From the NCBI GenBank assembly GCA_023150835.1, contig JAKLKB010000008.1:1-64000 (forward strand): DNA of 64,000 nt, given 5' to 3'. Below are positions 8,936 through 56,981 of this stretch, one piece after another. A program made the position numbers and the translations under genes. The notes under the pieces are model-generated. The model saw only the letters and a list, made by a program, of their open reading frames with translations, was not told where the DNA came from and made no database searches. The stretch's first letter is position 1. The number at the start of each line of letters is the position of its first letter. Source of the stretch: Myxococcota bacterium (GTDB lineage Bacteria > Myxococcota_C > UBA6777).

Positions 8936-8996
8936 AGCGGGCCTTCGTCAAGTCGGCCTTCGTGATGTCGGCCTTCGTGATGTCGGCCTTCGTGAT
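8928..8996. repeat. 15-bp tandem repeat (CTTCGTGATGTCGGC, about 4.5 copies)
   Basis: Directly visible; overlaps the stop codon of the upstream gene. Confidence 0.9.
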
Positions 8997-9131
8997 ACAC
9001 GATGCCCCCCCACTTGCGCCCAAGAAAACAGTCCGCTCTCTTGAAACTCTTTGAAATAGCCCGCTGTTTCGAGCGATCGAGCTGCTGCGTTGAACTATCG
9101 AGCAAAACAACTAGACCAAGCGAGTTTCTCT

Positions 9132-20356: not shown

Positions 20357-20393
20357 AGATAAACCGAGATGTGTCATACGAAATCCGCTCATG

Positions 20394-20500
20394 GTGTGAT
20401 CGGAAGATGTAGGGGCAGCCCCCTGTGGCTGCCCAAGAACAGAACTACTGTAACAACTCGTGCCGACGTTTCGAACACACATCTCTCGGATTATCGTGTA
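20394..20500. repeat. MITE/REP element, family B
   Basis: Termini TCATACGAAATCCG ... CGGATTATCGTG enclose the hairpin GTAGGGGCAGCCCCCTGTGGCTGCCC. Confidence 0.85.
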
Positions 20501-20530
20501 AGTCCTCTCCTATTAAAAGCAGGAAAAGTC

Positions 20531-22564
20531 ATGGAAAAGCGTTCGTTGGCGCACTCCTCTGGATCTCTCGAAGGTGTCACTCTCGGCAAGTACCGTATCG
20601 AGCAGCGTGTTGGAGGAGGTGGGCAGGCGGTTGTGTACAAGGCCCTGCATCTCGAATTTCAAACCCCCGTTGCCATCAAGGTTTTGACGGATCGCGTCTC
20701 GCAAAGCGCGACTTTGCGCGAGCGCTTTAAGCGCGAGGCTCGGCTCCAATTCAAGCTCCAACATCCTCATATCGTCCGAGCCTTCGAGATCATCGAAGAG
20801 GACTCTCTTCTTGCGATCGTCATGGATTGGGTCGAAGGGGTAGATCTGGAGCGTTATCTTGCGACGCATCCACAGCCGCTTTCTCACGCAGAGATCGAGC
20901 GCTTGTTTGTGCCGGTCCTTTGGGCCGTAGACGAAGCCCACAAACAACACATCATCCACCGTGATCTCAAACCCTCGAATATCTTGTTGAGTGGTCCTGT
21001 GGGCCGCGAGATCCCCAAAGTGATGGACTTTGGGATCGCCAAAAGTCTCGAAGACGACAGCCAACACACCCAAACCAACGCGCTGCTCGGAACTCCCCAT
21101 TACATCGCCCCCGAACACGCAGCATCGAGCAAATACGTCGATCACCGCGTCGATATCTACGCCTTGGGTGTCACGTTGTACCAGATGCTTTGTGGGAGTT
21201 TGCCATTTGCTGGAAAAGATCTTGTGCAACTGATCACCGCGCACCTGACGCAAGATCCACCTCCGATGCGGTCGTGGGGTGCAGAAGTCTCCCCTCTTTT
21301 AGAACAAGTCGCTCGAAAAGCCCTCGAAAAGCGCCCCGAGGCGCGCTTTCAAAACTGCCATGACTTCGCAGAAGCCCTTGTCGCGGCCCTCCACAACGAC
21401 GAGGCCACCGCTCTCAGACACCTTCGCGGTACGCAGTCGATATCTTCTCCCCAAGTCTCCGCACAAGATGTCCTTCCTACAGGCGAAATGGACGCTTATG
21501 CGCATTCTCCAAACAGCCTTGTTTCGCTTGCTACCACCACCCCTGCCAAAGAGCCGTTGCCTTCCAAACAGCCCGATACATCGAGGTATGCCTCTTCTTC
21601 CAAACAGGCCGATATATCGGGGCATGCCTTTTCTTCCAAACAGGCCGATATACCGAGGCACGCCTCTTCTTCCAAACAGGCCGATATACCGAGGCGCACC
21701 TCTTCGCGTTTTGTGGCTGCTGGCCTGTTGGTTTTGCTCGCGGTGGCTGTGGTGATCGGGGTTGTTGAGATGCGTGTCGTCTCGAACTCTCGCTCCGAGC
21801 GGAGCAATCCCCCCGCTCCGACCCAACGTACAAACCAACCCCCCTCTCTCGTCCCCGCTGAAACATCCATCGCATCGGCGAAAAAGCCACCCTCCGAAAT
21901 GCCCATCGCATCGGCGAAAAAGCCACCCTCTGAAGCGCCCATCGCATCGACCTCGACGCCCGCAATTGAAAGGCCGAATGTACCGCCTATTTCAAAAGCA
22001 ACCACCGATAGCGCAACTGCTGCCGGAGTCTCGGGGAAAAACGCAACGCCTCTAGCGAAGGCCCCCGTCGTTGTGCGGCACCCGTCTGTTCGTAAACCGC
22101 CCTACAAGCCGAATCCGTACTTGTTGTTGCCCCCTGTTGAGGAAAAACATTTTTCATCCTGCCCAGATTGTTTGCATGCGTTTTGGCTGGCGCGTCGGTC
22201 TTTTCGCAAAGACGCCTGCAAAGAAAGGCCGCTTAAAGTCGCGGCACGACGGTGTGTTCGGCTGTGTAAACAGGACATGGATTTTTGTACGTCCTACGCG
22301 ATGAGCTTGCCTTACCTTTATCCTTCTGCGCTGCGGCGCGGTGGTTCCGAGACGATGGACGATCAGATCGACCGCTGTGCGCATAACCTTCTGCATAAGT
22401 TCAACGAGATATTATTGCAAAGCGGCTACCATTCGGGGGTTTCGTTGGCGCCTGAGCGTTGTGTGACGCGTTTTCGTAACCATATCCGAAGGCGTCTGGC
22501 CTCGCGAGGGCAAAAAAGCCGGTTTGCTTGGTCGCCGTTTGATCATTATCCCTACCTTCCCTAG
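20531..22564 (+). CDS. Membrane Ser/Thr protein kinase (Hanks type) with C-terminal Cys-rich domain
   Basis: GGGGQAVVY, VAIK, HRDLKPSN, DFG, YIAPE; TM helix; 8 Cys in the C-terminal domain. Confidence 0.95.
   Translation: MEKRSLAHSSGSLEGVTLGKYRIEQRVGGGGQAVVYKALHLEFQTPVAIKVLTDRVSQSATLRERFKREARLQFKLQHPHIVRAFEIIEEDSLLAIVMDWVEGVDLERYLATHPQPLSHAEIERLFVPVLWAVDEAHKQHIIHRDLKPSNILLSGPVGREIPKVMDFGIAKSLEDDSQHTQTNALLGTPHYIAPEHAASSKYVDHRVDIYALGVTLYQMLCGSLPFAGKDLVQLITAHLTQDPPPMRSWGAEVSPLLEQVARKALEKRPEARFQNCHDFAEALVAALHNDEATALRHLRGTQSISSPQVSAQDVLPTGEMDAYAHSPNSLVSLATTTPAKEPLPSKQPDTSRYASSSKQADISGHAFSSKQADIPRHASSSKQADIPRRTSSRFVAAGLLVLLAVAVVIGVVEMRVVSNSRSERSNPPAPTQRTNQPPSLVPAETSIASAKKPPSEMPIASAKKPPSEAPIASTSTPAIERPNVPPISKATTDSATAAGVSGKNATPLAKAPVVVRHPSVRKPPYKPNPYLLLPPVEEKHFSSCPDCLHAFWLARRSFRKDACKERPLKVAARRCVRLCKQDMDFCTSYAMSLPYLYPSALRRGGSETMDDQIDRCAHNLLHKFNEILLQSGYHSGVSLAPERCVTRFRNHIRRRLASRGQKSRFAWSPFDHYPYLP
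21562..21706. repeat. 36-bp coding tandem repeat, 4 copies (SSKQADIPRHAS)
   Basis: Visible in the juxtamembrane linker; a 33-bp repeat (IASAKKPPSE) follows near 21865-21950. Confidence 0.9.
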
Positions 22565-22759: not shown

Positions 22760-24934
22760 ATGGGTTTCGCGGACAAGCTACAAGGCAAAACGCTCGGTAA
22801 ATACCGCATTGATGGCCTGATCGGAGATGGCGGTCAAGCCGTCGTGTACAAGGCTTGGCACGTCGACTTTGAGTCGTGGGTGGCGCTGAAGTTTCTTCAA
22901 GAACACGTCGCACAAAAGAGCGCGTTGCGCGAGCGCTTCAAACGCGAAGCGCGGCTTCAATTCAAATTACAACATCCCCATATCGTCCGCGTGATCGAGA
23001 TTATCGAAGAAGGTGAGCTGATGGGGATGGCGATGGATTGGGTCGAGGGGTGCGATCTGGAGCATTACCTCGAAAACAAAGGAACCCCCCTCAATGCCGA
23101 CGAACTTGCGCGATTGTTTTTGCCCGTCCTTGGGGCCGTTGGATACGCCCACAAACAACAAGTGATCCACCGCGATCTCAAACCCTCGAACATCTTGCTC
23201 GGTGGCCCTGTTGGGCAAGAGATCCCCAAAGTGATGGACTTTGGGATCGCCAAAAGCCTCGAAGATGAAAGCCAACACACCAAAACCAATTCCGTCCTTG
23301 GAACGCCTCATTACATCGCCCCCGAACAAGCCACCTCCAGCAAGTACGTCGATCACCGCGTCGATATCTACGCTCTCGGTATCTCGCTGTACCAGATGCT
23401 TACAGGGCATCTCCCGTTTGAAGGGCGTGATCTTCTTCAAGTTTTGGGGGCGCACTTGATGATCCCGCCGCCTGCTTTTGCAGAGTGGGGGGTGCATACT
23501 TCTCCCGGGCTGGAGGCTGTCGTGCAGCGCTCTCTTGCCAAAGATCCCGACCTACGCTTCCAAACCTGCGAAGAATTTGCGGTGGCCTTGATCGAACAGC
23601 TTCAGATGTATGCCATTCACCAAGGCTTGGCGACACCTCTCCCTCATTCGGCTGTTTTTGCTGCCCAAGGAGCCTTGTCGCCTGCCCCGTTGTCCTTGGC
23701 TTCTGCGCCGCTGTCTTTTTCTTCGACACCGCTGTCTTCGCCCAACGCTGCCGCGTGGAATACTCCTGCACCCTCGACAGCCTCCCTTCCTACAGGACAA
23801 TTCGCATTCATCCAAGCTGTTGCCGCTGGCGGACCAAGAACTCCTCCTTCCTCGGTCCATCAAAACCCGACGATCTTTCCTTCTGAAGGGCGAAAGCGCT
23901 CGTCTGCTCCGTTGCTGCTTCTGTTGCTTTTGGTGTTGTTTGCAGGGAGCGGTGGGTTGTATCTTGCGGAGCTCCTTCCTTTTCGTTCGCCTGCATCGTC
24001 TTCTTCGGGCACGGCTCCACAAACGCCTCACCCCCAACATTCGCCCCCCGCAAATCAGCTCTCTCCACATCCCGCTCTGGCCGTCAAAAACGCTGCGCTG
24101 AGTGCAACCCCCCCGCAAGATCGCAGCTTTGACCACTCCATCACCACACAAACTCCCTCGGCCCGTTCCACGCGATCCAGCGCAACGACTCCACGCAGTC
24201 GCTCGTCGTCTGCTTCGCCCGATCCATCGGCCCGTGCGCGTGCAAAGCGGTCTTCTCTTCGAAAGGTTCGACCCGCACGAAGCCGACGCGCTCCACCCCA
24301 TCCGCCCCAACGGCTCTCTCTGCCCATTTCTCCTCGTACCATACCGCAGCTCCCAAACGATGCGCCCGCAAAACGACCTGCTTTGCTTGCGCTATCGCCT
24401 ACGCCCTCGCCTTCACCGCGCCCGATCTTCGCCTCTTGCCAAGACTGCATCCAACAGCAAGTCCAACCCCACATCCAACGGCATAATTTTTATGAAAAAA
24501 CTTGCAACGCGGATATCCTTCAACTGAGTGCCAAACAGTGCGCCTCGGTTTGTCAGAAAGATCCTGCGCAGTTTTGTTTCCAATATGGCCGCCACAACGC
24601 CAACTTACATTTCCGCTACAATCCGCCTGCTTCGCTCTTTGTGGTGTGGCCTTGGTGGAACCAGAACCGATGGAAGATCCAAGCCTGCCGAAAGATCTTA
24701 CGTTTTGAATACGTTCATTTCTTTCCAATCCCCCTCTATCAGACCCGTGACTGGAAATCCTGCATCCGTCATTTCGATCAAGGAACCAAATCTGCGTTCC
24801 AAGCATGGCGCCAAACCAAGCTACCCAAATTCCCCCGATCCCCTCAAGATATCTCTCGTGGTTGGGATGATTTCCGCCGACGAGTCCAACGCCACAAACA
24901 ACGAATCGAAGACGCTTTGCCCTTCAAAGATTAA
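22760..24934 (+). CDS. Membrane Ser/Thr protein kinase, tandem paralog of the upstream kinase
   Basis: GDGGQAVVY, HRDLKPSN, DFG, YIAPE; TM helix; same 8-Cys C-terminal pattern. Confidence 0.95.
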   Translation: MGFADKLQGKTLGKYRIDGLIGDGGQAVVYKAWHVDFESWVALKFLQEHVAQKSALRERFKREARLQFKLQHPHIVRVIEIIEEGELMGMAMDWVEGCDLEHYLENKGTPLNADELARLFLPVLGAVGYAHKQQVIHRDLKPSNILLGGPVGQEIPKVMDFGIAKSLEDESQHTKTNSVLGTPHYIAPEQATSSKYVDHRVDIYALGISLYQMLTGHLPFEGRDLLQVLGAHLMIPPPAFAEWGVHTSPGLEAVVQRSLAKDPDLRFQTCEEFAVALIEQLQMYAIHQGLATPLPHSAVFAAQGALSPAPLSLASAPLSFSSTPLSSPNAAAWNTPAPSTASLPTGQFAFIQAVAAGGPRTPPSSVHQNPTIFPSEGRKRSSAPLLLLLLLVLFAGSGGLYLAELLPFRSPASSSSGTAPQTPHPQHSPPANQLSPHPALAVKNAALSATPPQDRSFDHSITTQTPSARSTRSSATTPRSRSSSASPDPSARARAKRSSLRKVRPARSRRAPPHPPQRLSLPISPRTIPQLPNDAPAKRPALLALSPTPSPSPRPIFASCQDCIQQQVQPHIQRHNFYEKTCNADILQLSAKQCASVCQKDPAQFCFQYGRHNANLHFRYNPPASLFVVWPWWNQNRWKIQACRKILRFEYVHFFPIPLYQTRDWKSCIRHFDQGTKSAFQAWRQTKLPKFPRSPQDISRGWDDFRRRVQRHKQRIEDALPFKD

Positions 24935-45690: not shown

Positions 45691-47256
45691 CTAGGGGAGA
45701 GGGGGAGGCCACGCGCCCAAGCGTTGTTGGACTTCTGTGGCGAAAGATCGCAGGGCAAGGCCCTTGTGTTGGCGAAACAGAAAGCGCCCAGCTTCCAAGT
45801 CAAGCGACCACCAAGCGCGACCTGTCGAAGCGTAGAGGACGCCTTTGTCGAGCTGATCGGGGTGGATGGAAGGAAAGTCGCCAAGGAGCTGTTGTAGAGG
45901 GTCTTCGATCTGCCATGCTCCGCGAAATGTTCCACGGCGAGCATCCAAAAGCAAAAGCAGACGGCGTTTGTTTTCCCAAGGCAGAGGGATCAGAACATGA
46001 TACGCATCGCGTAAGATTTCGCCTGCAATTAAGGTCGATGCGATACGATAAGGGCGGCTGATCCAATGGATACGGCGCGCCTGAGTGTCAAAGATGGCAA
46101 GGCGCTTTTGTTGGGGATCGGCGAGTTGCCGCAGCCATAGCGGGAAGAATCGCCAAGGCAGCACACCCCACGCAGAGCGCGTCGGGCGAAGTTGTCCCCA
46201 TGTATCGTAGAAGTTGGAAACAGCGTAACCTGCGGGGAGAGCGAGTTCTTTTTTTTGTGAGCGCTGGAGATCAAAGACACGGAGTTTTCGGCAAGGTAGC
46301 ACGCTGCCATTGTTGCCGATCCATAGGGCATCTTGAGCCATACCGACAAGGACGCGGTGTGGATCGAGATCGGAGATCGCCAAGGTTTTTCCTTCGCGGT
46401 GAACGGCGTTCCATTGATCGGTGTGGGTGTCATAACGAGACCACAGATGGGTTTTGCTTTGTTCTTCCCAGCGGAATCCCCACATCCCGCTTTGGTGGGT
46501 GTACAAACGCCCATCGAGCGGGAGGGATCGCAGGCCGCCGTTTTTTAGGTGAAAGCGATGGAGAGAGTGAGGTTGTTGGAGGTAAAGGTGATCACCGTGG
46601 ATTTGGGGGGCACGCAAGGCTCCGCCTTGTAGCGTATGCTCCCAGCGGATCGCGCCGTTGTGTTTGGAGAGGGCGAGGATGCGTTGTTGTTGTCGATCGT
46701 GTGGGTGTTGGAGAAACAGCATCGGACCTTGTGGTGTGACGAAGAGGCCGATGTAGAGGGACCAATCAAAGGGTTTAGGTAGGGTGAATTGCCAACGCAA
46801 TGTTCCGTTTAGAAGGTTTCGTGCGTCGAGTGTGTGGTTGTGGGTGCGCCCGAGGTAGAGAGAAAGATCGTCATGTTGAAGGAGCCTTCGCTGAAGTGTG
46901 GGGATGCGTCCACGTTGCCAGCGCGGAAGGGTGATCTGCCATCGGACTTGAGGAGAAGAGGGCGGGGTCCAACGCCACAAGGCCAGATGGGTCTGTTGCG
47001 GATCGGCTTCGCGCAAAACGACGATGGCTTGGGTGTTTTGGGGAACGGTGGTTTGGATTGGCAAGACTGCGCGGATCGTTTGGCCGAGGCCCATCAAGGG
47101 AGATGTGTCAGGCAGAGCCGCGCTTTCTCGGGGAGGAGGTTTGGCGGGAAGTGGGGATCGAGTGCTTTGAGAACCTGCACAGGTCGATGTATCGGCCATC
47201 CACAGTCCGCTACCGAGCCATCCCAAGATCAACCAATGCCACTGTTTTGCCACCAT
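45691..47256 (-). CDS. Exported PQQ-like/BamB-type beta-propeller protein
   Basis: LDARNLLNGTLRWQF, LALSKHNGAIRWEH, LLLLDARRG; N-terminal hydrophobic stretch. Confidence 0.65.
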   Translation of the reverse strand: MVAKQWHWLILGWLGSGLWMADTSTCAGSQSTRSPLPAKPPPRESAALPDTSPLMGLGQTIRAVLPIQTTVPQNTQAIVVLREADPQQTHLALWRWTPPSSPQVRWQITLPRWQRGRIPTLQRRLLQHDDLSLYLGRTHNHTLDARNLLNGTLRWQFTLPKPFDWSLYIGLFVTPQGPMLFLQHPHDRQQQRILALSKHNGAIRWEHTLQGGALRAPQIHGDHLYLQQPHSLHRFHLKNGGLRSLPLDGRLYTHQSGMWGFRWEEQSKTHLWSRYDTHTDQWNAVHREGKTLAISDLDPHRVLVGMAQDALWIGNNGSVLPCRKLRVFDLQRSQKKELALPAGYAVSNFYDTWGQLRPTRSAWGVLPWRFFPLWLRQLADPQQKRLAIFDTQARRIHWISRPYRIASTLIAGEILRDAYHVLIPLPWENKRRLLLLLDARRGTFRGAWQIEDPLQQLLGDFPSIHPDQLDKGVLYASTGRAWWSLDLEAGRFLFRQHKGLALRSFATEVQQRLGAWPPPLP

Positions 47257-47440
47257 GGAGGTACTCCGTCCTGCTGCGGGGGGCGCTTTGGTCACGTTAC
47301 GGGAAAAGATCTTACGCATCTTGCCCTGTGGAAGCAACGCTTTTGATTTGTGTGGTTCGCCTTCTGACGGGATGATCCGCTTGCGGTGTAAGTGTGTTGT
47401 GGTATCTTTCGCGGGGATCGGCCAAGCGAAGGAGCGCAGT

Positions 47441-49417
47441 ATGTCCGAAGCATCGACTCAACGCATCTGTCACCAGTGTCAAGCGAATCTGCCTATCGAG
47501 GCGCGTTTTTGTTTGTTTTGTGGTGCAGCGCAGCCTGTCGGACAGGGGGCTGCGCCGAGCCCTGCGAAGCAACAGGCCGAGGCTTTCGGCAAAGCACCGA
47601 CCGCAGACAGGGGGCAGCACGACACTTCTTTGGGGGAGATCGACGTGGGTGCAGCGACGTGGGTGGATATCTCGAACGATCGCGAACATACCGAAGGCTT
47701 GAGGAAAACAGAGGAATTGGGGCAAAAAACGGACGAGCAAACAACGCTTGAAGCGTTGGGATCGGGTTCGACGTGGAGTCCTGCGCTTGTCGCAGCACGT
47801 CCGTTGGGGACACCTTCGGGAGAGCGTTACGACGGTCGGTTGCGTGTGGGGGATCGGATCGGTGGGCATTATGAGATCGTGGGTGTCTTGGGTGAGGGGG
47901 GGATGGGGGTGGTGTATGGTGCGCACGATCACAAAGCCCAACGAGAGGTCGCGATCAAGACGCTGCATGCAAACCTGCTTGGCGATGCGGGAATTCGTCA
48001 GCGGTTTTTGCGTGAGGCGCGGGTGATGTCGACGTGGTCTCACCCAAATATCGTCCAAGTCTTTGATCGAATTGACGAACCAACGATCTTGGCGATGGTG
48101 ATGGAGCGTGTAGACGGGATGACCTTGACGCAGTACCTCAAGCAATGGGGCGGGCAGATGCCTTTTGAGGAGATGCGGGAGATCTTTTTGCCGATCCTTG
48201 ATGCGGCGGCAGAAGCCCACCGACACGGGATTATCCATCGCGATATCAAGCCCGACAACATCTTGCTGGCGCGGGGAGTCAAGCGCATGGTCCCGAAGGT
48301 CGCCGACTTTGGGTTGGCCAAGATCCTCGAAGGGACGACCTACACCGTCACGGGGGCTTTGTTGGGGACTTGTTTGTATATGTCCCCCGAACAAGCCCAG
48401 AGTCAGCGCGCTTTAGATCACCGCTCGGATATCTACTCGTTGGGGATCTGCTTGTATCAGCTTTGTACAGGGCGTTGCCCCTTTATGGATGCCAATCATT
48501 TCTCCCTGATGATGGCACATGTCCACCAAGTCCCGCCTTCTCCTCGTCTTTTTCGGGCAGATCTACCCGATGAAGTCGAGGCTTTGATCATGGAGACGTT
48601 GGCCAAGTCTCCCGAACAGCGGCCTGCTTCTTGTGAGGTGTTTCGTGATCGATTGCAACAAGCGCTGGATCATCTGCCTTTGGCTTCACCACCTTCTTCT
48701 TCGCGCCAGTTGTTGCCTGTGATGGTCGCTGCGGGAGCAGAGATGCGCTTGGTGCCTGCGGGGAATTTTTTGATGGGCAATGAGCGAAGAGAGATCTTCT
48801 TAGATGATTTTTACATGGACACTTATCCTGTGACAAATCGCTTGTTTCAGGTCTTTTTGGAGGCGACAGGTTATGGTCCGCGTGATCGAGAAGCGCATCG
48901 CTTTTTGGTGCATTGGGGGGCAGGGCGCAAGTGCCCGTCGCATCTTGCGGATCATCCCGTCGTTTATGTTTCTTGGTACGATGCAAGGGCCTATGCTGCG
49001 TGGGCAGGCAAGATGCTTCCTTCGGAGGCGCAGTGGGAAAAAGCAGCCCGAGGACAGGATGGCCGAAAATACCCTTGGGGACGGGATGATCCCGACGATC
49101 TTCGTGCAAACTTTCACCGACGATCCCAAGGCACCCGTTCTGTGCATCTGTCCCCAAAGGGCGTTTCGGTGTACGGGATACAAGACTTGGCTGGAAACGT
49201 GTGGGAGTGGTGTGAAGACGTCGATGATCCGGCCTTTTATGCAAAGGGGCCGACGCACAATCCCCGCAACGTGATGCGCTCGGAAGAGGCCCGCTTTGTT
49301 TTGCGCGGAGGTTCTTGGATCTACAATGCGCGTGCGCTGCGTACGACCGCCCGTTTTAGCCACGAACCCACCGCACGCCTTGAAGACGTCGGGTTCCGTT
49401 GTCTCCGCTTGCCGTAA
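47441..49417 (+). CDS. Zinc ribbon + Ser/Thr kinase + FGE-sulfatase (SUMF1/CLec) domain protein
   Basis: CHQC...FCLFCG; LGEGGMGVVY, HRDIKPDN, DFG, YMSPE; FLMG, PVTN, LPSEAQWEKAARG, DLAGNVWEW, RGGSW, GFRC. Confidence 0.95.
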   Translation: MSEASTQRICHQCQANLPIEARFCLFCGAAQPVGQGAAPSPAKQQAEAFGKAPTADRGQHDTSLGEIDVGAATWVDISNDREHTEGLRKTEELGQKTDEQTTLEALGSGSTWSPALVAARPLGTPSGERYDGRLRVGDRIGGHYEIVGVLGEGGMGVVYGAHDHKAQREVAIKTLHANLLGDAGIRQRFLREARVMSTWSHPNIVQVFDRIDEPTILAMVMERVDGMTLTQYLKQWGGQMPFEEMREIFLPILDAAAEAHRHGIIHRDIKPDNILLARGVKRMVPKVADFGLAKILEGTTYTVTGALLGTCLYMSPEQAQSQRALDHRSDIYSLGICLYQLCTGRCPFMDANHFSLMMAHVHQVPPSPRLFRADLPDEVEALIMETLAKSPEQRPASCEVFRDRLQQALDHLPLASPPSSSRQLLPVMVAAGAEMRLVPAGNFLMGNERREIFLDDFYMDTYPVTNRLFQVFLEATGYGPRDREAHRFLVHWGAGRKCPSHLADHPVVYVSWYDARAYAAWAGKMLPSEAQWEKAARGQDGRKYPWGRDDPDDLRANFHRRSQGTRSVHLSPKGVSVYGIQDLAGNVWEWCEDVDDPAFYAKGPTHNPRNVMRSEEARFVLRGGSWIYNARALRTTARFSHEPTARLEDVGFRCLRLP

Positions 49418-49504
49418 AAGCATCACGAAACTTCGAGGGCATAGGAGTGGTGCGGCTGCCAAAAAAGCCGTGTTTGCGAACGCTTAAGCGAGGGCGTTGA
49501 TGGT

Positions 49505-49582
49505 GTGAAAAACATTGATCTGTTCGCCGATAGGGGGCCAAGGGGCGGCAGTCCCTTGTGGGGTTTGGGGTGACACCCCCAC
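49505..49582. repeat. REP-like element, family C
   Basis: GAAAAACATTGATCTGTTCGCCGATAGGGGGCCAAGGGG...CCCTTGTGGGGTTTGGGGTGACACCCCCACA. Confidence 0.85.
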
Positions 49583-49699
49583 AAAAACCATCCAAATGTG
49601 CAAGCTCTATCGGAAGAAAACTTGCGTCTTGTAGCGGGGTTGGGTTTGATGGGGGGACGTAGTGATTGAAGAAACACAACAAGAAAGGCCAGCGCGCTC

Positions 49700-51004
49700 A
49701 TGGAACAACAGAAAAACATCCGTATCACCGAACCTTCCCGCTGGAATGGGAGGATGGCTTGGCGTGTTGGTTGGTGGTTGGTTGGGGTTTGGTGGATCTT
49801 GAGTGGCTATGGGGGGGGGCAAGCACGCGCCAAAGGCAGCTTTCGGGACTATCAAAAGGCTTGTGAGAAAGGCAATCCCAACGGATGTTTGCAGTCGGGA
49901 TATCTGCTTGAATTGGGCAAGAAAGTACCGAAAGACCCACAAGAAGCTTTGCGGATGTATCTGCGTGCTTGTGAACTCAAGCAGGCGAGAGGATGCACAG
50001 ACGCGGGGGTGATGTGGGCAAAGGGGCTTGTGGGAAAGCCTTCGATGATGAAGGCTTTAACCCTTTACGAAAAAGGCTGTGCAGGGCGCGATCACAAAGG
50101 CTGTTTTTTGTGGGCGTTGTGGTTGGAGCGAGAGAAGCTCACACAGCCGATCGCGGCGGCGCACCAAGCCTATGAAAAAGCATGCACTTATGGATCGGGT
50201 GCGGCGTGTGTCTTGTTGGGGCGGCGCTTTGCAAGCGGGCGCTTGGCACCACGTGATCCAAAACGCGCTGCAGAATTGTTTCGCCGCGCTTGCTTGTCGC
50301 GAAATGATCATGAGGGTTGTGCGCGTTGGTCGATCTTTCTTGATCGTGGGGTCGGTGGGACCGCCGATCCCGCGTTGGCTCAGCGCAATTGGAAGTGGTC
50401 TTGTGAGAAAAAGTATGGCTTTGCGTGTACGTTGTTGGGGGCGAGTTTTCGTGATGGACGTATCGGGAAACCTTCTCCCGCCAAGGCCGCCAAGATGTTT
50501 CGCTTGGGTTGCCGTTTGCGCGATCCAAACGGTTGTATGCTGTTGGCTCGCCTTTATGAAGGCGGTTCGGGAGCCAAAGCCTCCCAAGGAAAATCGAGTC
50601 GCCAAGCCCAAGAACTCTACCAAAAAGCCTGCCGTCTCGGTATGCACCAAGCCTGTTTTACGCTTGCAGTGAATTACGAAAAAGGATCTGGCTTACGAAA
50701 AAATCGAGATCTCTCTCTCAAGATGTACGAAAAATCTTGTGAGCTAGGTTCTGGAATCGGCTGCTATGCTTTGGCATTTCATCTGCAAGCAGGCCCCCCA
50801 CAAATCTCTAACGAAAAAAAGAAAAAGCCTAAAAAAAACAAAAAGAGATCACGCCCAAAAAAGAGTTCAAGATCCGCCTCGGCGGTTTCTTCGCCCAGAC
50901 CGGCCTATGAGGTCCCAGAAGCCAAAGTCTTGCGCCTTGTGCAGCGTGCTTGTGCCTTGGGGTACGCGCTTGCGTGCAAAGTAGAAAAAATTCGCGAGCC
51001 ATAG
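49700..51004 (+). CDS. Secreted Cys-rich Sel1-like repeat protein (HcpA-like)
   Basis: Repeated YxKACxxGxxxGCxxLG units; signal peptide. Confidence 0.92.
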   Translation: MEQQKNIRITEPSRWNGRMAWRVGWWLVGVWWILSGYGGGQARAKGSFRDYQKACEKGNPNGCLQSGYLLELGKKVPKDPQEALRMYLRACELKQARGCTDAGVMWAKGLVGKPSMMKALTLYEKGCAGRDHKGCFLWALWLEREKLTQPIAAAHQAYEKACTYGSGAACVLLGRRFASGRLAPRDPKRAAELFRRACLSRNDHEGCARWSIFLDRGVGGTADPALAQRNWKWSCEKKYGFACTLLGASFRDGRIGKPSPAKAAKMFRLGCRLRDPNGCMLLARLYEGGSGAKASQGKSSRQAQELYQKACRLGMHQACFTLAVNYEKGSGLRKNRDLSLKMYEKSCELGSGIGCYALAFHLQAGPPQISNEKKKKPKKNKKRSRPKKSSRSASAVSSPRPAYEVPEAKVLRLVQRACALGYALACKVEKIREP

Positions 51005-51143
51005 AACAGCTTGCGGTCTTCGCAGAAGCGGCAAGCGTCGGGGTTGTACTGTGTGTGGGTCTCGGAGCAGGGGTGAAAGCGTCGAGAAAGCGTCGGCAGA
51101 GAGGGCCGCTAGAACGTTGCACTATGTGGATCGAAGCAGGGCG

Positions 51144-52991
51144 TTAAAGTGGGGTGGAGGAGAGGATGTTTCGTGCGCGGATCAAAAGCATCCCGACGTT
51201 GATGTGGGCGGGGCAAACAAAGACCACGACGACGCGGGGATGGGCATGCAAACGCCCAAAAAAGTGGATGAGGTTGGAAGAAAAGATCACACACTCCCGA
51301 AAATAGGGTTCTTGTGGGGTGCTGCGCTCTGTTTGTAAGAGCGCTTCGATGGTTTTGGCGCTTGGGCCTTCAAACAGCTCCGTAGTTGTGGCTGCGACGA
51401 GATCGAGCACCTCGCGATCGTGGGGGCGTGCGGTGTGGACGTCTACAAGAAATCCCGTGTCGATGTCGACGATGCCGACGCCAAGAAGGTGATGGATCTC
51501 TTGTAGGGCGCGTTGTATCAGCAGTGTTTCCGTGTTGGTGCGTGAGGAAGTGGGCGAGGGTTGTGCGGAAGCGGAAGCAGCGGGGGAAGCAGCGGGGAAA
51601 GCAGCGGAAGCAGCGGGAAAAGCAGCGGGGAAAGCAGCGTGGGAAACAGCGAAAGAAGCGGAAGCCGTATGGGAAGCAGCGGAAGCGTAAGGAGAAGAAA
51701 GCATGGAAGCCGCTTCGTAAGAAAGAGAAGGTAAGGAGGATGCGACACGCACCGAAGATTCGGATTCGTGGATGCGTTGCAGCGGGGAGATCGGCGTGAG
51801 CGTGGGGGCGTGGCTGAGCGGAGTCTCTTCGAAAGAGCCATCGAGCTTTTGTGCGTGCAAGGGGGCTTGAAGATCGCGGGTGGTGGGGGCGGGTAGGTCG
51901 TCAAAGCTGAGGCTTGCAAAAGGGTGGCGGTGGGCTTGGTCGAGGGCGGATGGGCTGGGCGAGACGCAAGCAGGACGGGGATCGGGTGCGTGATGTGCGT
52001 GGGGATGCAAGGGCAAAGAAGGGCGTGCTGTTGGTAAAGAAGAGACAAGCGAAGTCGGAAAAAGCGAGAGGCTTTCTTGGATGGCGTGTTCGAGGGTGGG
52101 GGCTTCGCGGAGGGCGTAGGCATGGACAGCATGAACAAGCGCACGCCAAAAGACGGATGCTGTGCTGGGTCGATCATCTGCTTTTTTGGACAGGAACCAT
52201 TGCAAGGCTTGTTCGAGTTCGGGGAGTTTGGCGAAAAAGGGGTTGACATCGGAAAGTAGAGGCGGGGGTTTTTGAACGTGTTGTGACATCAGACTATAAG
52301 TGCTGTCGCCCAAGAAGGGGAGCCGCCCGGTCAGGGCTTCAAAGAGCAAGACACCCAACGAATAAAGATCCGTCCGAGGGTCGGGATCAAGCATCCCTTG
52401 GGCTTGTTCGGGGGACATATACTGAGGGGTGCCGAGAGTGGTTCCTGCAAGGGTGATCGGGCTATCCGATTCAAACAACCGAGCGATACCAAAGTCGATC
52501 AGTTTTGCGTGGGTCCACGTCTTTTTCTGGCGGGTTTTTTCTTTGAGGATCACATTCGCAGGCTTCAAGTCGCGATGCAAAAGTCCTTGCCGATGGATGT
52601 AGTCTAATCCGCTGGCGAGTTCTGCAAAAAGTCGCAACGTCTCAGTTAAACCAAGGCCCCCCGAGGAATGATCAAGGTACTCGCGAAGGTTTTCGCCCGC
52701 AAGAAACTCCATCACCAAGTAAAGACCGACGTGATCGTCGCGTGAAAAGTCCAGTGTCTTGACGATGTTTGGATGATCCAAACCCTCCAAGATCCGGGCT
52801 TCTTGGGTGAAACGTTTTTCCCAAGAAGACAACATCTCCGGATCGGTGCGCAAGATCTTGACGGCGACGAATTGCTCGGTGTTTCGGTCTTGGGCGCGGT
52901 ACACATACGCCATCCCCCCTGCGCTGATGCGCTCGCCAAGCCGCCAGCGGCCTCCGAGTTCGCGATCTTCCCACACATCGATGTGTACCAT
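51144..52991 (-). CDS. Cytoplasmic Ser/Thr kinase with a C-terminal Roadblock/LC7-like domain
   Basis: AGGMAYVY, VAVK, HRDLKPAN, DFG, YMSPE; C-terminus LGVGIVDIDTGFLV...LDLVAATTTELF...ECVIFSSNLIHFF...NVGMLLIRAR. Confidence 0.9.
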   Translation of the reverse strand: MVHIDVWEDRELGGRWRLGERISAGGMAYVYRAQDRNTEQFVAVKILRTDPEMLSSWEKRFTQEARILEGLDHPNIVKTLDFSRDDHVGLYLVMEFLAGENLREYLDHSSGGLGLTETLRLFAELASGLDYIHRQGLLHRDLKPANVILKEKTRQKKTWTHAKLIDFGIARLFESDSPITLAGTTLGTPQYMSPEQAQGMLDPDPRTDLYSLGVLLFEALTGRLPFLGDSTYSLMSQHVQKPPPLLSDVNPFFAKLPELEQALQWFLSKKADDRPSTASVFWRALVHAVHAYALREAPTLEHAIQESLSLFPTSLVSSLPTARPSLPLHPHAHHAPDPRPACVSPSPSALDQAHRHPFASLSFDDLPAPTTRDLQAPLHAQKLDGSFEETPLSHAPTLTPISPLQRIHESESSVRVASSLPSLSYEAASMLSSPYASAASHTASASFAVSHAAFPAAFPAASAAFPAASPAASASAQPSPTSSRTNTETLLIQRALQEIHHLLGVGIVDIDTGFLVDVHTARPHDREVLDLVAATTTELFEGPSAKTIEALLQTERSTPQEPYFRECVIFSSNLIHFFGRLHAHPRVVVVFVCPAHINVGMLLIRARNILSSTPL

Positions 52992-53282
52992 GCGCTCGTT
53001 CCTGTGTTTGCTTTGGGTAAAGGAGATGCAGGACAAAACAAGACCATGCAAGTGCGCATGGGATCGTCGGAAATAAAACGAAGTACCGTTGTTTTTTTAA
53101 GGGGGTTTTGGGAAAAGTCAAGTGTTTGTGGGCTGTCGGGTGCGTTAGATCTCGGATTTAAGAAGGGAAAAAAAGTGAGGGTCGCGGAGAACAGGAGAGG
53201 TGGCTTTGTGTGCGCGGAAGTCTTGGAATGAGGTCTCTGTGTTTAGAAAAGTTCTTGTCTGCCACGCAGCGGCTTTGTGTGC

Positions 53283-53448
53283 ATAATACGAAATCCGCCT
53301 GTTTACCATAAAGAGGTAGGAGCAGCCCCCTGTGGCAGCCCGATAATAGGGCATATCCGTAAAATGTAGGGGCAGCCCCCTGTGGCAGCCCGATAATAGG
53401 GCATATCCGTACTATCCTTTGTGTACACATTACTCGGATATCGTATGA
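53283..53448. repeat. Family B MITE with a duplicated internal REP unit
   Basis: ATACGAAATCCG ... (GCAGCCCCCTGTGGCAGCCCGATAATAGGGCATATCCGTA) x2 ... CGGATATCGTATGA. Confidence 0.9.
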
Positions 53449-55152
53449 TTATGCGAAGATCTCGCTGGGTGAGCAAAGTCGGCGAGCGTAGCGCAAAAGG
53501 AGTTCGGTGGAGATGTTGGGAGGGAGGAGAAAAAGAACAGCGGCTTGGGTTTGAGTGGGGAGGAAAGCGATGTAATGGAGGAGATGTTCGGAGCAGAGGA
53601 TGGCTTCTTGGAAGGCCAAGGGGGTGGTGGGCGAGGCGTTTTGGGTGTGGAGAAGCCGAAACAACGGGGTTGAATGGAGGAGGGCGGCATGGGTCTCGGG
53701 ATCTTGGGCGTGTTGTGCGATCCAACGTTCGTGGGGAAGGGAGAAGACGCCTGCCCCGCAAAGCGTGGGGAGTTGTTCAGCGGCTTTACGCAAGAGCCGT
53801 TCAGCGGCATGGCGGAAAGGGTCTTGAGGGAGGGCATTGGGTTCGATTAGGGTGTGCTCATCCAGCCCTTCGATGCGGGGGTTGTGTGGGGTGGCGGAGG
53901 GCGGTTGTGTGGGGGGGAAGGTCTCTTGGGGGGCAGGATAAGGGGGGCGCGTGGCGTAGAAGGAGGGCAGAGCGTCAAGGGCATCAAAAGAAGAGGGGGC
54001 ATGGGGCAGATCGTGGTGTTTGGACAGATCGTGGTGTTTGGGCAGAGAGAGCGTTGGATTTTCAAAGTGAAGCGCTTGTAAGGCATCCATTGAATCAAAG
54101 GCAGGGCGTCGAGTGGCGGGTGTGACGATGGAGGCGGGATGAGGGGTGAGTTTGGCGCGTGTGTGGCTGGCCATCTCGATGATTTGGGGCGGATCTTCCG
54201 AAGGATTCGAGATCTCGGGGAGGAGAGGTAGTTCAAGTGTGTCGAGTTCATCGATCCATGCGGGATCTTCGCGGTAAGCAAAGGAGCGGAAGGAGTCGAG
54301 GATGGTTTGCCAGAAAGTACGAAGGTCACGGGGCCGCGCTTCGGGGGTTTTGGCCATGCCCCAAAGCAGGGTTTGTTCGAGTTCGGGGAGGCGTTCAAAA
54401 AAGGCATCGCGTTCGCGCAGATAGGGAGGAGGGGCGTGGACGTGGCTGGCCATGATGGCGTAGGCCGTTTTGCCGGTGAAGGGAACGTCTCCTGTGAGGG
54501 CTTCAAAGAGCATCACGGTGAGGGCATAGAGATCCGTGCGGTGGTCGATCTGTTGTTGGCCTTGGGCTTGTTCGGGGGCCATGTAGAGGGGGGTTCCGAG
54601 GGTGGTGTTGGAGCGGGTGATCGGGGATTCTTCGTCGATGGGGCGAGCGATGCCAAAGTCGATGATCTTGATCTGTGGTGTTTTTTGGTGGGCTTGGGCA
54701 GGTAACAAGAAGATGTTGCCGGGTTTGAGGTCGCGGTGAAGGAGGCGACGGTGGTGGATATAATCGAGACCTGCACAGATCTGCGAAAAGATCCGAGCGA
54801 TCTCGTGGAGTCCGAGGGGAACGGTGCGGCGCTTGAGCAGATCTTGGAGGTTGTAGCCTTCTAGCCACTCCATGACCAAGAGATAGCCGAGAAAAGCGTC
54901 TTCGCCTGCATGGAGAGACCGCACGATATGGGGGTGGTGAAGTTGCGCAAGTAGGCGGGCTTCACGGAGGAATCGTTGTCCCCATGTGGTCTCGTTTTGG
55001 CGGTTGGGATCGAGTACCTTGATCGCGGCGGGTTGTTGGGAGTGGGTATCAAGGGCTTGGAATACAGAAGACATTCCGCCTGTGTAGACACAATGTTGGA
55101 TCTTCCAACGCGAAAACAGGACACGATCTTTCCATAAAGACTCGGATAACAT
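53449..55152 (-). CDS. Cytoplasmic Ser/Thr kinase paralog with a divergent Roadblock-like C-terminal domain
   Basis: TGGMSSVF, AAIK, HRDLKPGN, DFG, YMAPE; C-terminus LCGAGVFSL...FQEAILCSEHLLHYI...NISTELLLRYAR aligns with the neighbouring kinase. Confidence 0.88.
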   Translation of the reverse strand: MLSESLWKDRVLFSRWKIQHCVYTGGMSSVFQALDTHSQQPAAIKVLDPNRQNETTWGQRFLREARLLAQLHHPHIVRSLHAGEDAFLGYLLVMEWLEGYNLQDLLKRRTVPLGLHEIARIFSQICAGLDYIHHRRLLHRDLKPGNIFLLPAQAHQKTPQIKIIDFGIARPIDEESPITRSNTTLGTPLYMAPEQAQGQQQIDHRTDLYALTVMLFEALTGDVPFTGKTAYAIMASHVHAPPPYLRERDAFFERLPELEQTLLWGMAKTPEARPRDLRTFWQTILDSFRSFAYREDPAWIDELDTLELPLLPEISNPSEDPPQIIEMASHTRAKLTPHPASIVTPATRRPAFDSMDALQALHFENPTLSLPKHHDLSKHHDLPHAPSSFDALDALPSFYATRPPYPAPQETFPPTQPPSATPHNPRIEGLDEHTLIEPNALPQDPFRHAAERLLRKAAEQLPTLCGAGVFSLPHERWIAQHAQDPETHAALLHSTPLFRLLHTQNASPTTPLAFQEAILCSEHLLHYIAFLPTQTQAAVLFLLPPNISTELLLRYARRLCSPSEIFA

Positions 55153-55444
55153 GGCACAATCCTTCCACAAAAAGCACTCCACCATGCAAGGGTGTGCGCG
55201 GTGGGCGAGGATGTAGTGAGGTTGTGAAGGGATGTCAAGAGGGAAAACAAAGGATGGTGCGGTTGTTTTTGTGGTGAGAGGAGCGGGCGGGTGTTGTTTG
55301 GCGGATGTCAAGAGGGAAAATGAAGATTTGTGTGGTCGTCGATGGACAACAAGGCGGTAGGGTGAGGAGAGCGATGTTGTCATGGAGGAAGGCTTGGGAT
55401 ATAGGTGGAGAAGGCACAGGCGAAGAAGAGAGCGGAGCATCGGC

Positions 55445-56245
55445 ATGGTGGCAAAAGAGTTAACAAAACGTGAGGAGATCGAGCCTTATTTGCGGAGGGA
55501 TGTGGGGTTGCATCTGTACGCGCTTGGGGATCTAGAAGAGCCATATTGGTCGCGGGCGCGTTGGTGGGGATGGGAAGAGAAGGGTGAGTTAGAAGGGGTG
55601 TTGTTGCTGTACAGCGGAGAAGAGGGGGCGACGGTCTTGGGACTCACGGACAAGGTGGCTGCGATGCAGTCGTTGTTGTTGGCGGTGGCTCCGATGCTGC
55701 CCGAGGAGTGTTACGCGCACCTGAGTCCACGGGTGGTGCAAGCGCTGGTTCGGGCGGGATGGATGGTGGAAAAGAAGGCTGATCTTTTTAAGATGATGTT
55801 GACGGCCCCTGAGTTTTTGGAGCATTTGCGTTTTGAGGGAGTGGAAACTCCTACAGAGTCGGACTTTTTGGAGATCGAGAGGTTGTATGCGGTGAGTTAT
55901 CCCGGGCATTGGTTTACACGCGGGCGTCTTGCCGAGGGATGGATGCGTGGGATCAAAGAAGCGGGGAGATGGGTTGCGGTGGCGGGGGTGCATGTGGTGT
56001 CACGACAGATGCGCGTTGCAGCGTTGGGCAATATCGCGGTTCATCCCGATGCACGGGGGCATGGATTGGGATTGCAAGTGACAGGGGCTTTGTCGCGTGA
56101 TCTACGAGTCCAAGGGATCGAGGATGTCGGATTAAATGTCCGTGTTGACAACAAAGTTGCACGCCGTTGTTACGAGCGTTTGGGCTTTTCGGTGGTGGCT
56201 TCTTATGGAGAGTATCGGTTGCAGCGCGAGCAAAAGCTCGTTTGA
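55445..56245 (+). CDS. GNAT N-acetyltransferase (FR47-like C-terminal domain)
   Basis: LGNIAVHPDARGHGLG, LNVRVDNKVARRCYERLGF. Confidence 0.92.
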   Translation: MVAKELTKREEIEPYLRRDVGLHLYALGDLEEPYWSRARWWGWEEKGELEGVLLLYSGEEGATVLGLTDKVAAMQSLLLAVAPMLPEECYAHLSPRVVQALVRAGWMVEKKADLFKMMLTAPEFLEHLRFEGVETPTESDFLEIERLYAVSYPGHWFTRGRLAEGWMRGIKEAGRWVAVAGVHVVSRQMRVAALGNIAVHPDARGHGLGLQVTGALSRDLRVQGIEDVGLNVRVDNKVARRCYERLGFSVVASYGEYRLQREQKLV

Positions 56246-56789: not shown

Positions 56790-56861
56790 CGGAGCACTCA
56801 GATATTGCGCCATATCCTTGAAAACTCCCGTGTTCGTGGGCTTTCAAGCGATAGTGCTGTA

Positions 56862-56942
56862 GGTTTGAAAAACGCTGATCTCTTCGCCAATATGGGGTCA
56901 AGGGGGCGTGACCCCTTGTGGGGTGTGGGGTGACACCCCACA
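56862..56942. repeat. REP-like element, family C
   Basis: GGTTTGAAAAACGCTGATCTCTTCGCCAATATGGGGTCAAGGGGCGTGACCCCTTGTGGGGTGTGGGGTGACACCCCACA. Confidence 0.88.
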
Positions 56943-56981
56943 AAAACAGACCCGCCTACATCCGTTCGATGTGCAAAGAGA

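Follow-up and report, generated by a model that had tools for sequence, protein, structure and literature searches.

The K1 and K2 kinases

Within the 64,000-nt stretch of DNA analyzed here (the window; positions 1 to 64,000 of contig JAKLKB010000008.1 of a Myxococcota bacterium), two minus-strand genes, K1 and K2, each encode a Hanks-type Ser/Thr protein kinase followed by a linker and a C-terminal Roadblock-like (RBL) domain, and the RBL domain of K1 has the fold of the Roadblock/LC7 superfamily. The organism is an uncultured activated-sludge bacterium, and its assembly (G000) comprises 7.56 Mb in 239 contigs and is 93% complete. The coordinates of the two genes and of their parts are collected in Table 1.

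Both proteins match Pkinase (PF00069; cut-off 31.7 bits), K1 with 162.5 bits (E 1.7e-47) and K2 with 161.3 bits (E 4e-47), and in both the VAIK Lys, the HRD Asp, the DFG Asp and the (S/A)PE motif are intact (VAVKIL 62, HRDLKP 159, DFG 186 and SPE 213 in K1, P0001 numbering; AAIKVL 42, HRDLKP 139, DFG 165 and APE 192 in K2). The glycine-rich loop is SAGGMA in K1 (SAGGMAYVY 43) and YTGGMS in K2 (YTGGMSSVF 23); of GxGxxG the central Gly pair alone remains and the loop is not canonical, unlike LGEGGMGVVY in the neighboring kinase at 47255-49417. Judging from these motifs, K1 and K2 are probably catalytically active. No transmembrane (TM) helix was found in K1 or K2, the highest 19-residue Kyte-Doolittle windows reaching 1.98 in K1 (606-625) and 1.27 in K2. 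The K1 segment was rejected as a TM helix because it lies within beta5/alpha3 of the confidently modeled C-terminal domain; it contains Pro, His and Asn.

Over 298 residues, K1 and K2 share 46% identity in their kinase domains (BLASTP, E 7e-91); in the last ~130 residues their identity is 22% (pairwise E 2e-8). A genome search with the K1 kinase domain returned at least 96 six-frame matches at E<=1e-30, five of them inside the window; among these, K2 is the closest paralogue of K1 (287.6 bits against 214.5 for the next match), and by sequence the two genes are a tandem duplicate. The RBL domain occurs on K1 and K2 only among these kinase matches. The kinome of this organism is very large, its window members lying at 20369-22564, 22760-24934 and 47255-49417 besides K1 and K2. 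Close metagenomic relatives are 90-91% identical to K1 and 91% identical to K2; word-indexed homologue searches with each tail recovered the query's own record and one ~90% relative only, and a locus search with P0003 was uninformative, giving one locus with the 36%-identical kinase domain of a Myxococcales metagenome-assembled genome.

Both linkers are of low complexity, with the compositions given in Table 1. The DNA of the K1 linker carries at 51563-51691 a 9-12-nt periodic repeat (family D1) encoding AAFPAA(S) repeats, and a 12-nt in-frame insertion behind 51618 in a contig of one metagenomic DNA run suggests that linker length is polymorphic between strains. The initial annotation of this DNA had described two co-oriented paralogous kinases without TM helix, with Ser/Pro/Ala linkers, a C-terminal domain and the atypical loops SAGGMA and YTGGMS. 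The reading frames, composition and alignments agree with this description, the C-terminal domain spanning ~130 aa in our analysis.

Table 1. Positions of K1, K2 and their parts in the window
Feature	Position	Strand	Basis
K1 gene: Hanks-type Ser/Thr kinase, linker and RBL domain	51144..52991	-	Open reading frame (ORF), 615 aa
K1 protein kinase domain, P0001 residues 38-300	52152..52940	-	Pfam PF00069, 162.5 bits
K1 low-complexity Ser/Ala/Pro linker, ~residues 320-504	51540..52094	-	S 19%, A 19%, P 14%; no Pfam match
K1 C-terminal RBL domain, well-conserved family member	51147..51539	-	phmmer, AlphaFold2, structure searches, hhalign
K2-K1 intergenic spacer, 457 bp	52992..53448		Sequence, repeat family D6
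K2 gene: paralogous Hanks-type Ser/Thr kinase, linker and degenerate RBL domain	53449..55152	-	ORF, 567 aa
K2 kinase region, residues 1-297 as aligned to K1	54262..55152	-	BLASTP, 46% identity
K2 Pro-rich linker, ~residues 298-440	53833..54261	-	P 17%, L 11%, A 10%; Pfam matches chance-level only
K2 C-terminal degenerate RBL domain	53452..53832	-	BLASTP to K1 RBL, E 2e-8; genome search, E 2.2e-5

Fold and predicted pairing of the C-terminal domains

Curated sequence models do not recognize the C-terminal domains. At E<=10 the C-terminal piece of K1 had no match in Pfam and that of K2 had chance-level matches only, PF03259 (Robl_LC7) not being among them; in NCBIfam the C-terminal domain had no match, the matches of K1 and K2 being confined to the kinase domain and all below curated cut-offs. 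The gathering score of PF03259 (23 bits) was not reached, and a six-frame genome search with this model matched contigs C42 and C72 only. An AlphaFold2 (AF2) model of the K1 domain, built from a 79-row family alignment (K1 and 78 free relatives), reached a predicted local distance difference test (pLDDT) score of 93.5 and a predicted template modeling (pTM) score of 0.87 and supersedes a single-sequence model that was unusable at pLDDT 44.8. It has the topology alpha1 (residues 5-19), beta1 (25-30), beta2 (35-41), alpha2 (47-62), a short extra helix alpha2' (64-74), beta3 (87-91), beta4 (95-101), beta5 (108-115) and alpha3 (120-133).

In a Foldseek-independent search of 48,161 solved chains with this model, MglB of Myxococcus xanthus (6hjm_A) ranked first (Z 15.9, root mean square deviation 2.1, 121 aligned residues), followed by an Asgard Roadblock3, MglB of Thermus thermophilus, a Streptomyces Roadblock/LC7 protein and p14; the top nine chains were all Roadblock, MglB or LAMTOR proteins (Z 15.9-12.8), with GAF and profilin folds from about Z 11. 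Foldseek gave 125 matches at E<=1e-3, headed by Roadblock/LC7 proteins, MglB and Ragulator p14/MP1, the best being 3kye_A (1.3e-7). At the level of sequence, hhalign aligned the family with 28 canonical Robl_LC7 proteins from genomes over 116 columns at 95.9% probability (E 5.8e-9), the extra helix alpha2' showing as an insertion. The family profile matched PDB sequences weakly, best the Robl_LC7 protein 7f8m_A (E 0.16) and MglC (E 0.67); matches to ribosomal protein S5 (E 0.52-0.76) were taken as chance. Automatic names such as 'Roadblock/LAMTOR2 domain-containing protein' are attached to the nearest ESM Atlas clusters (cosine 0.96), which have no Pfam family in common.

Both the fold and the sequence-profile homology by which the Roadblock/LC7 superfamily is recognized were found for the K1 domain, which is a Roadblock/LC7 domain, as had been proposed from its pattern of helices and strands. 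Given that PF03259 itself does not match, RBL is a divergent sister family, an uncurated branch of the superfamily that lies outside PF03259 as modeled, and not an orthologue of MglB. In the comparison of the tail with PF03259 and MglB, the structural match to MglB stands and the match to the PF03259 hidden Markov model (HMM) does not.

The initial annotation had also called one copy conserved and the other diverged, and this holds. Whereas the K1 domain keeps the family motifs, K2 and its orthologues retain GAGV, F-x-E, S-x-x-L-x-H and the Arg of the last helix; the K2 domain lacks ~12 residues after alpha2, the VD..TG hairpin motif and the greater part of the HPxEVLDLxAAAT helix motif, and it has F in place of the near-invariant Arg with which beta4 ends (R101 in the 136-aa K1 piece). 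The same-genus orthologue of K2 is 59% identical overall and 45% identical in the RBL domain. The domain stays open and alignable in this orthologue, and so in two species of the genus, as well as in a 91%-identical metagenomic relative, which argues from sequence conservation that the K2 domain is still in use.

Complex prediction with the K1 and K2 RBL domains and their family alignments gave a score of 0.71, against 0.01 for the best of three controls, and passed a mark that 116 of 157 solved complexes attain, as do 2 of 215 mismatched pairs. Between runs, at least 79% of contacts agreed, with a partner pLDDT of at least 75 (76-78). The predicted interface joins K1 residues 55-73, 84-94 and 120-124 to K2 residues 54-72, 80-92 and 117-121; the contacts between K1 84-94 and K2 80-92 (beta3-beta3') together with those of alpha2/alpha2' and the start of alpha3 correspond to the classical Roadblock dimer mode.

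Combining the fold, the family data described below and the complex prediction, we suggest as the most likely reading, with moderate confidence, that the RBL tails of K1 and K2, each borne on a long disordered linker, are dimerizing and docking modules that bring two soluble Hanks kinases together and offer a Roadblock platform. In this model, (i) two RBL domains would pair via the canonical interface, i.e. the edge strands beta3-beta3' and the helices alpha2/alpha2', either as K1:K2 or as a homodimer, (ii) pairing would keep two kinase domains within reach of each other for trans-phosphorylation, and (iii) the dimer would form a two-fold Roadblock platform of the kind on which, in characterized relatives, a further partner docks. 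Because K1 keeps the conserved surface of the family and K2 has lost it, the faces of a K1:K2 pair would differ, one being conserved and the other degenerate, and the pair would be asymmetric. Dimerization, the juxtaposition of the kinases and the identity of a docked partner are what we infer from these data.

Several points weigh against this model. Because many Roadblock dimers have been solved, the complex score may reflect likeness to them and not binding of these particular copies, and it leaves heterodimer and homodimer unseparated; of the heterodimer put forward in the initial annotation, the predicted association is therefore supported by the model and the choice of K1:K2 over homodimers is not. 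Kinase activation by juxtaposition is general knowledge of Hanks kinases such as PknB. The first Gly of GxGxxG is substituted in both kinases, and their activity is a presumption. The K2 domain is not found by the family HMM at E<=1e-3, and its fold is deduced from homology and from the complex model (pLDDT 76-78). The two genes are separated by a gap of 457 bp with a dispersed repeat and may be transcribed separately. Lastly, the same-genus genome G002 (64% complete) keeps the synteny of a Sel1 protein, the K2 orthologue, GNAT, GH57 and a Rho_N protein, and K1 is absent between the Sel1 gene and the K2 orthologue at this locus; K2 can thus occur in the absence of K1, which makes an obligate K1:K2 pair unlikely. 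A 137-aa ORF at that position was considered as a K1 remnant and rejected, as it has no likeness to RBL and is negative with the family HMM.

Some of the same observations would fit the absence of any joint function, K1 and K2 being two of many kinases, the K2 tail a decaying relic and the K1 tail an ordinary oligomerization tag. The K2 domain has lost most family motifs and ~12 residues, its tail evolves faster than the kinase (45% compared with 59% overall, the kinase part being visibly higher in the alignment), K1 is missing from the syntenic locus of G002, and the spacer between the genes is wide and filled with repeats. However, what speaks against a relic is a tail that has stayed open and alignable in two species and a 91%-identical relative and that is modeled at pLDDT 76-78 in a specific interface, and we consider this explanation very unlikely.

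The RBL family and the genomic setting

A phmmer search of 1.84 billion representatives with the last 136 residues of K1 identified 265 proteins at E<=1e-3, 61 of them at E<=1e-10. Most of these relatives are stand-alone proteins of 120-160 aa that are matched over their whole length. Architectures were scanned for 51 of the best 150 relatives, including all 26 longer than 190 aa, and five neighborhoods were inspected. None of the 51 matched Robl_LC7 at E<=0.01. In all fusions observed the RBL domain is C-terminal: it follows a Hanks kinase in three of the 51 (P0004, P0005 and P0010), a DSP-PTPase in three (P0017, P0023 and P0034), a REC domain in two (P0102 and P0131) and a P-loop N-terminus in two (P0007 and P0008); only P0085 and the REC protein P0131 have a significant match to DUF4388 (E<=1e-9). 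The N-terminus of P0007 is MglA-like, its best PDB match being MglA (3t12_A, E 1.8e-4, residues 3-170); it is 27% identical to the MglA-like protein of our organism (BLASTP, E 7e-10), with Walker A motif and NKQD visible, and P0008 has a similar layout.

The family is sparse, being found in 8 of 401 genomes (E<=1e-4), five of which, counting G000, belong to the organism's own taxonomic family; for canonical Robl_LC7 the count is 41 of 121 genomes. In G000 the carriers are K1, K2 (weakly) and a free paralogue on another contig (C35:11929-12300) that is 40% identical to the K1 domain (E 4e-27). This paralogue is conserved in a same-genus genome (L008) with the same neighbors, aminopeptidase-like and LysR-like genes as named from their translations. 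Near it lies a gene for a collagen-like GAKGDAGAKGD repeat protein (G000:C35, L004, 3012-3362, plus strand), which also occurs in L008.

The neighborhoods of other family members are rich in signaling genes. In G279 (L023, C104, 6140-9478, minus strand) a REC-PATAN gene is followed by the gene for a canonical Robl_LC7 protein, then by that for a free RBL protein and lastly by a metallophosphoesterase gene, and in G285 a weak RBL member has a Robl_LC7 protein of 346 aa as its neighbor. RBL is fused to REC-PATAN in the organism's own family, and these fusions are followed by a gene with metallophosphoesterase-type motifs, as read from the translation; in G003 the distance between the fusions and canonical Robl_LC7 genes is 2.1-2.3 kb. 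In G350 (L022, C1:1688000-1706000; 7244-10729, minus strand) there are two free RBL genes with an ABC-type ATPase gene after each of them, and between the two lie genes for a DSP-PTPase and for an unknown 164-aa protein. Judging from these fusions and neighborhoods, the RBL family behaves as an add-on module of signaling proteins that recurs in signaling modules. Two further observations stand out from this survey: the succession of REC-PATAN, canonical Roadblock and RBL, with a 400-520-aa metallophosphoesterase directly after the RBL gene or fusion, recurs (L023, L009-L011), and in G350 Roadblock-like proteins are paired with ABC-type ATPases instead of small GTPases.

The associations of the family bear on what the tails of K1 and K2 might dock. 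One possibility is that an RBL dimer serves as the platform for an MglA-type small GTPase, in the role of GTPase-activating protein (GAP), effector site or anchor, so that the nucleotide state of the GTPase switches the kinases or the kinases phosphorylate parts of the polarity module. The best structural match of the K1 domain is the GAP of MglA, P0007 joins RBL to an MglA-like GTPase and P0008 has a similar layout, free RBL genes directly adjoin canonical Robl_LC7 and REC-PATAN genes (G279, G285), and the fusions in G003 are close to canonical Robl_LC7 genes; moreover, Wuichet and Sogaard-Andersen (2014; PMC4316618) describe PATAN in MglB/MglA neighborhoods, namely as genes near mglA/mglB. 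The genome also has one MglB-MglA pair, on contig C42. However, this MglA-like gene (C42:1314-1898), the single one in the genome, lies directly after the canonical MglB-like gene and on another contig than K1 and K2. Neither a GTPase nor a Roadblock gene was found among the 15 ORFs scanned with Pfam at 32-64 kb of the window, and a genome search with PF00071 found no small Ras-like gene on the window's contig (C111), its matches being one Ras-like region within a 1269-aa frame on C131 and two sub-threshold ones. Other RBL members pair with ABC-type ATPases and phosphatases (G350), not with GTPases. GTPase coupling of the K1 and K2 domains is plausible, but as an explanation of this locus we regard it as rather unlikely. 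Thus, of the link to a small GTPase that had been drawn earlier, the part that stands comes from the fusions and neighborhoods of RBL relatives, and nothing at the K1/K2 locus itself adds to it.

Alternatively, the tethered domains may exchange partners, pairing not with each other but with the free RBL paralogue on C35 or with a canonical Roadblock protein; by analogy with partner-switching modules, such a partner would recruit, localize or inhibit the kinase or be phosphorylated by it. This idea would account for the prevalence of stand-alone members in the family, for a free paralogue so similar to the K1 domain and with conserved neighbors, and for the free RBL genes beside canonical Roadblock genes, a DSP-PTPase (G350) and a metallophosphoesterase (G279, and likewise after the REC-PATAN-RBL fusions); fusions of RBL to both kinases and phosphatases are expected for a domain of a phosphorylation cycle. 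Nevertheless, the free paralogue is unlinked to K1 and K2, and we consider partner exchange of this kind quite unlikely.

With regard to the locus, the start codon of K1 was placed at the ATG at 52991 (MVHID...), as in the gene call of the public collection (P0003), an alternative TTG at 53051 giving an ORF of 635 aa (51144..53051). For K2 a longer ORF from an ATG at 55446 is possible; the ORF of the same-genus orthologue starts just 6 residues upstream of the Met matching the K2 start. By Pfam, the 15 ORFs at 32-64 kb include genes for a TonB receptor, HEAT and Sel1 repeat proteins, a kinase-FGE-sulfatase fusion, GNAT and a GH57 branching enzyme, among others. The fusion (47255-49417, plus strand) is a 720-aa protein with a zinc ribbon, a Hanks kinase (Pkinase 3.5e-50) and a C-terminal FGE-sulfatase/SUMF1-like domain (3e-49). 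A 126-nt direct repeat of 74% identity at 49461-49586 and 56821-56946 flanks a 7.4-kb segment containing Sel1, K1, K2, GNAT and a 217-aa hydrophobic ORF, and may be another dispersed intergenic repeat. The spacer between K1 and K2 holds at 53311-53410 two tandem 50-nt repeat copies that are 94% alike (family D6); a 111-nt query gave 68 genome matches at E<=1e-3, often in tandem arrays, and the word depth of the repeat is far above that of its flanks in all four metagenome runs compared. This family looks like a repetitive extragenic palindromic (REP)- or miniature inverted-repeat transposable element (MITE)-like intergenic repeat.

Near-identical DNA was found in 17 runs that contain half or more of the words sampled; they are metagenomes of activated sludge, wastewater and aquatic habitats and stem from five studies besides the possible source. 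RNA-library contigs (two runs of one sample in one study) span most of K1 and K2 and are compatible with expression, bearing in mind that DNA can be present in such libraries. These contigs leave 50900-51056, 53098-53254 and 55296-55600 uncovered, all of which two DNA runs cover; as the contigs come from a single sample, we rejected the gaps as transcript ends or as a sign of separate transcripts. A scan of 50900-55600 gave 3 promoter-like signals, where 1.3 are expected, and 7 terminator-like signals, where 4.1 are expected, none convincingly placed.

Comparison with known systems

The Roadblock fold, fusions of Roadblock domains to signaling domains, and systems combining a kinase, a Roadblock protein and a GTPase (the conservon) are already known; what was not found described is a Hanks kinase fused to a Roadblock-type domain, and for the RBL sequence family there is no curated model. 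A literature search, with most subscription journals outside its coverage, found no paper on a Hanks kinase-Roadblock fusion; this fits the initial annotation, which knew of no characterized example, without proving it. Roadblock domains normally form pairs and are a platform that small GTPases have in common, from MglB in bacteria to Ragulator and the Rag C-terminal domains at the eukaryotic lysosome, and little is understood of the wiring between bacterial Hanks kinases and other switches. With two kinases joined covalently to a pair of Roadblock domains, K1 and K2 are a compact and testable case of Ser/Thr phosphorylation controlled by dimerization or by a GTPase. With 265 representative clusters and no Pfam or NCBIfam model, RBL merits definition as a family because its fusions and neighbors (kinases, DSPs, metallophosphoesterases, REC-PATAN, an MglA-like GTPase, ABC-type ATPases and canonical Roadblock proteins) mark it as a recurring signaling part.

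A more far-reaching scenario, which we consider distinctly improbable, is that RBL is an unrecognized adaptor of Ser/Thr/Tyr phospho-signaling in bacteria, by which kinases, dual-specificity phosphatases (DSPs) and receiver-PATAN proteins are wired to GTPases of the MglA type or to other P-loop NTPases, and that here an asymmetric K1:K2 heterodimer docks the single MglA-like GTPase of the genome, the kinases being switched by the polarity switch or acting on it. If this were the case, bacteria would have in the K1:K2-GTPase module a counterpart of the kinase scaffold that MP1-p14 forms on Ragulator.

Among characterized proteins, the closest in structure is MglB, the Roadblock-fold GAP of the Ras-like GTPase MglA in M. 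xanthus and T. thermophilus. The K1 RBL domain shares its fold (best match 6hjm_A; Z 14.5 for 3t1r_A), the predicted K1:K2 dimer uses the same beta3/alpha2 mode, and RBL relatives are fused to an MglA-like GTPase and adjoin Robl_LC7 and PATAN genes. In contrast to MglB, RBL has a sequence identity of 12-16% to it and no PF03259 match and contains the extra helix alpha2' after alpha2; moreover, MglB is a free protein, whereas the K1 and K2 domains are tethered to a Hanks kinase and have no mglA beside them, the mglB-mglA pair lying elsewhere in the genome.

MP1-p14 (LAMTOR3-LAMTOR2) of Ragulator, a scaffold for MEK1/ERK, resembles K1/K2 in concept: it is a heterodimer of two diverged Roadblock paralogues, in which a Roadblock pair brings protein kinases together, and it is among the structural matches of the K1 domain (2zl1_B, Z 13.3; 1veu_B, 6b9x_B and 5y3a_G by Foldseek). 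Unlike K1/K2, it is eukaryotic and binds its kinases non-covalently instead of by covalent fusion, and the homology is at the superfamily level only.

The actinobacterial conservon of Streptomyces, as outlined in PMC4316618, consists of the histidine kinase CvnA, the Roadblock protein CvnB, CvnC and the GTPase CvnD and is likewise a single signaling unit in which a protein kinase is combined with a Roadblock protein and a small GTPase. It differs from K1/K2 in having a membrane histidine kinase in place of a Hanks kinase and in that its components are separate proteins encoded in a conserved operon; no gene for DUF742 (CvnC) or a GTPase was found among the ORFs scanned around K1/K2 at 32-64 kb.

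The fusions REC-Robl_LC7, REC-PATAN-RBL and TPR-Robl_LC7 share with K1 and K2 a C-terminal Roadblock-type domain as the output or adaptor of a signaling protein, and REC-PATAN-RBL belongs to the same sequence family and occurs in the organism's own taxonomic family. However, their input is a receiver or TPR domain, whereas in K1 and K2 this position is taken by an enzyme, the Ser/Thr kinase; none of the five long canonical Robl_LC7 proteins scanned contains a kinase. A protein with the layout of K1 is P0010 (WP_151969608.1) of Candidatus Uabimicrobium amorphum, named in its source only 'serine/threonine protein kinase' and uncharacterized within the reach of our searches, in which Pkinase (E 1.2e-54) is followed by a C-terminal RBL domain that is 42% identical to that of K1 (E 4.4e-22), and which differs from K1 in an extra N-terminal region of ~125 aa and a short linker.

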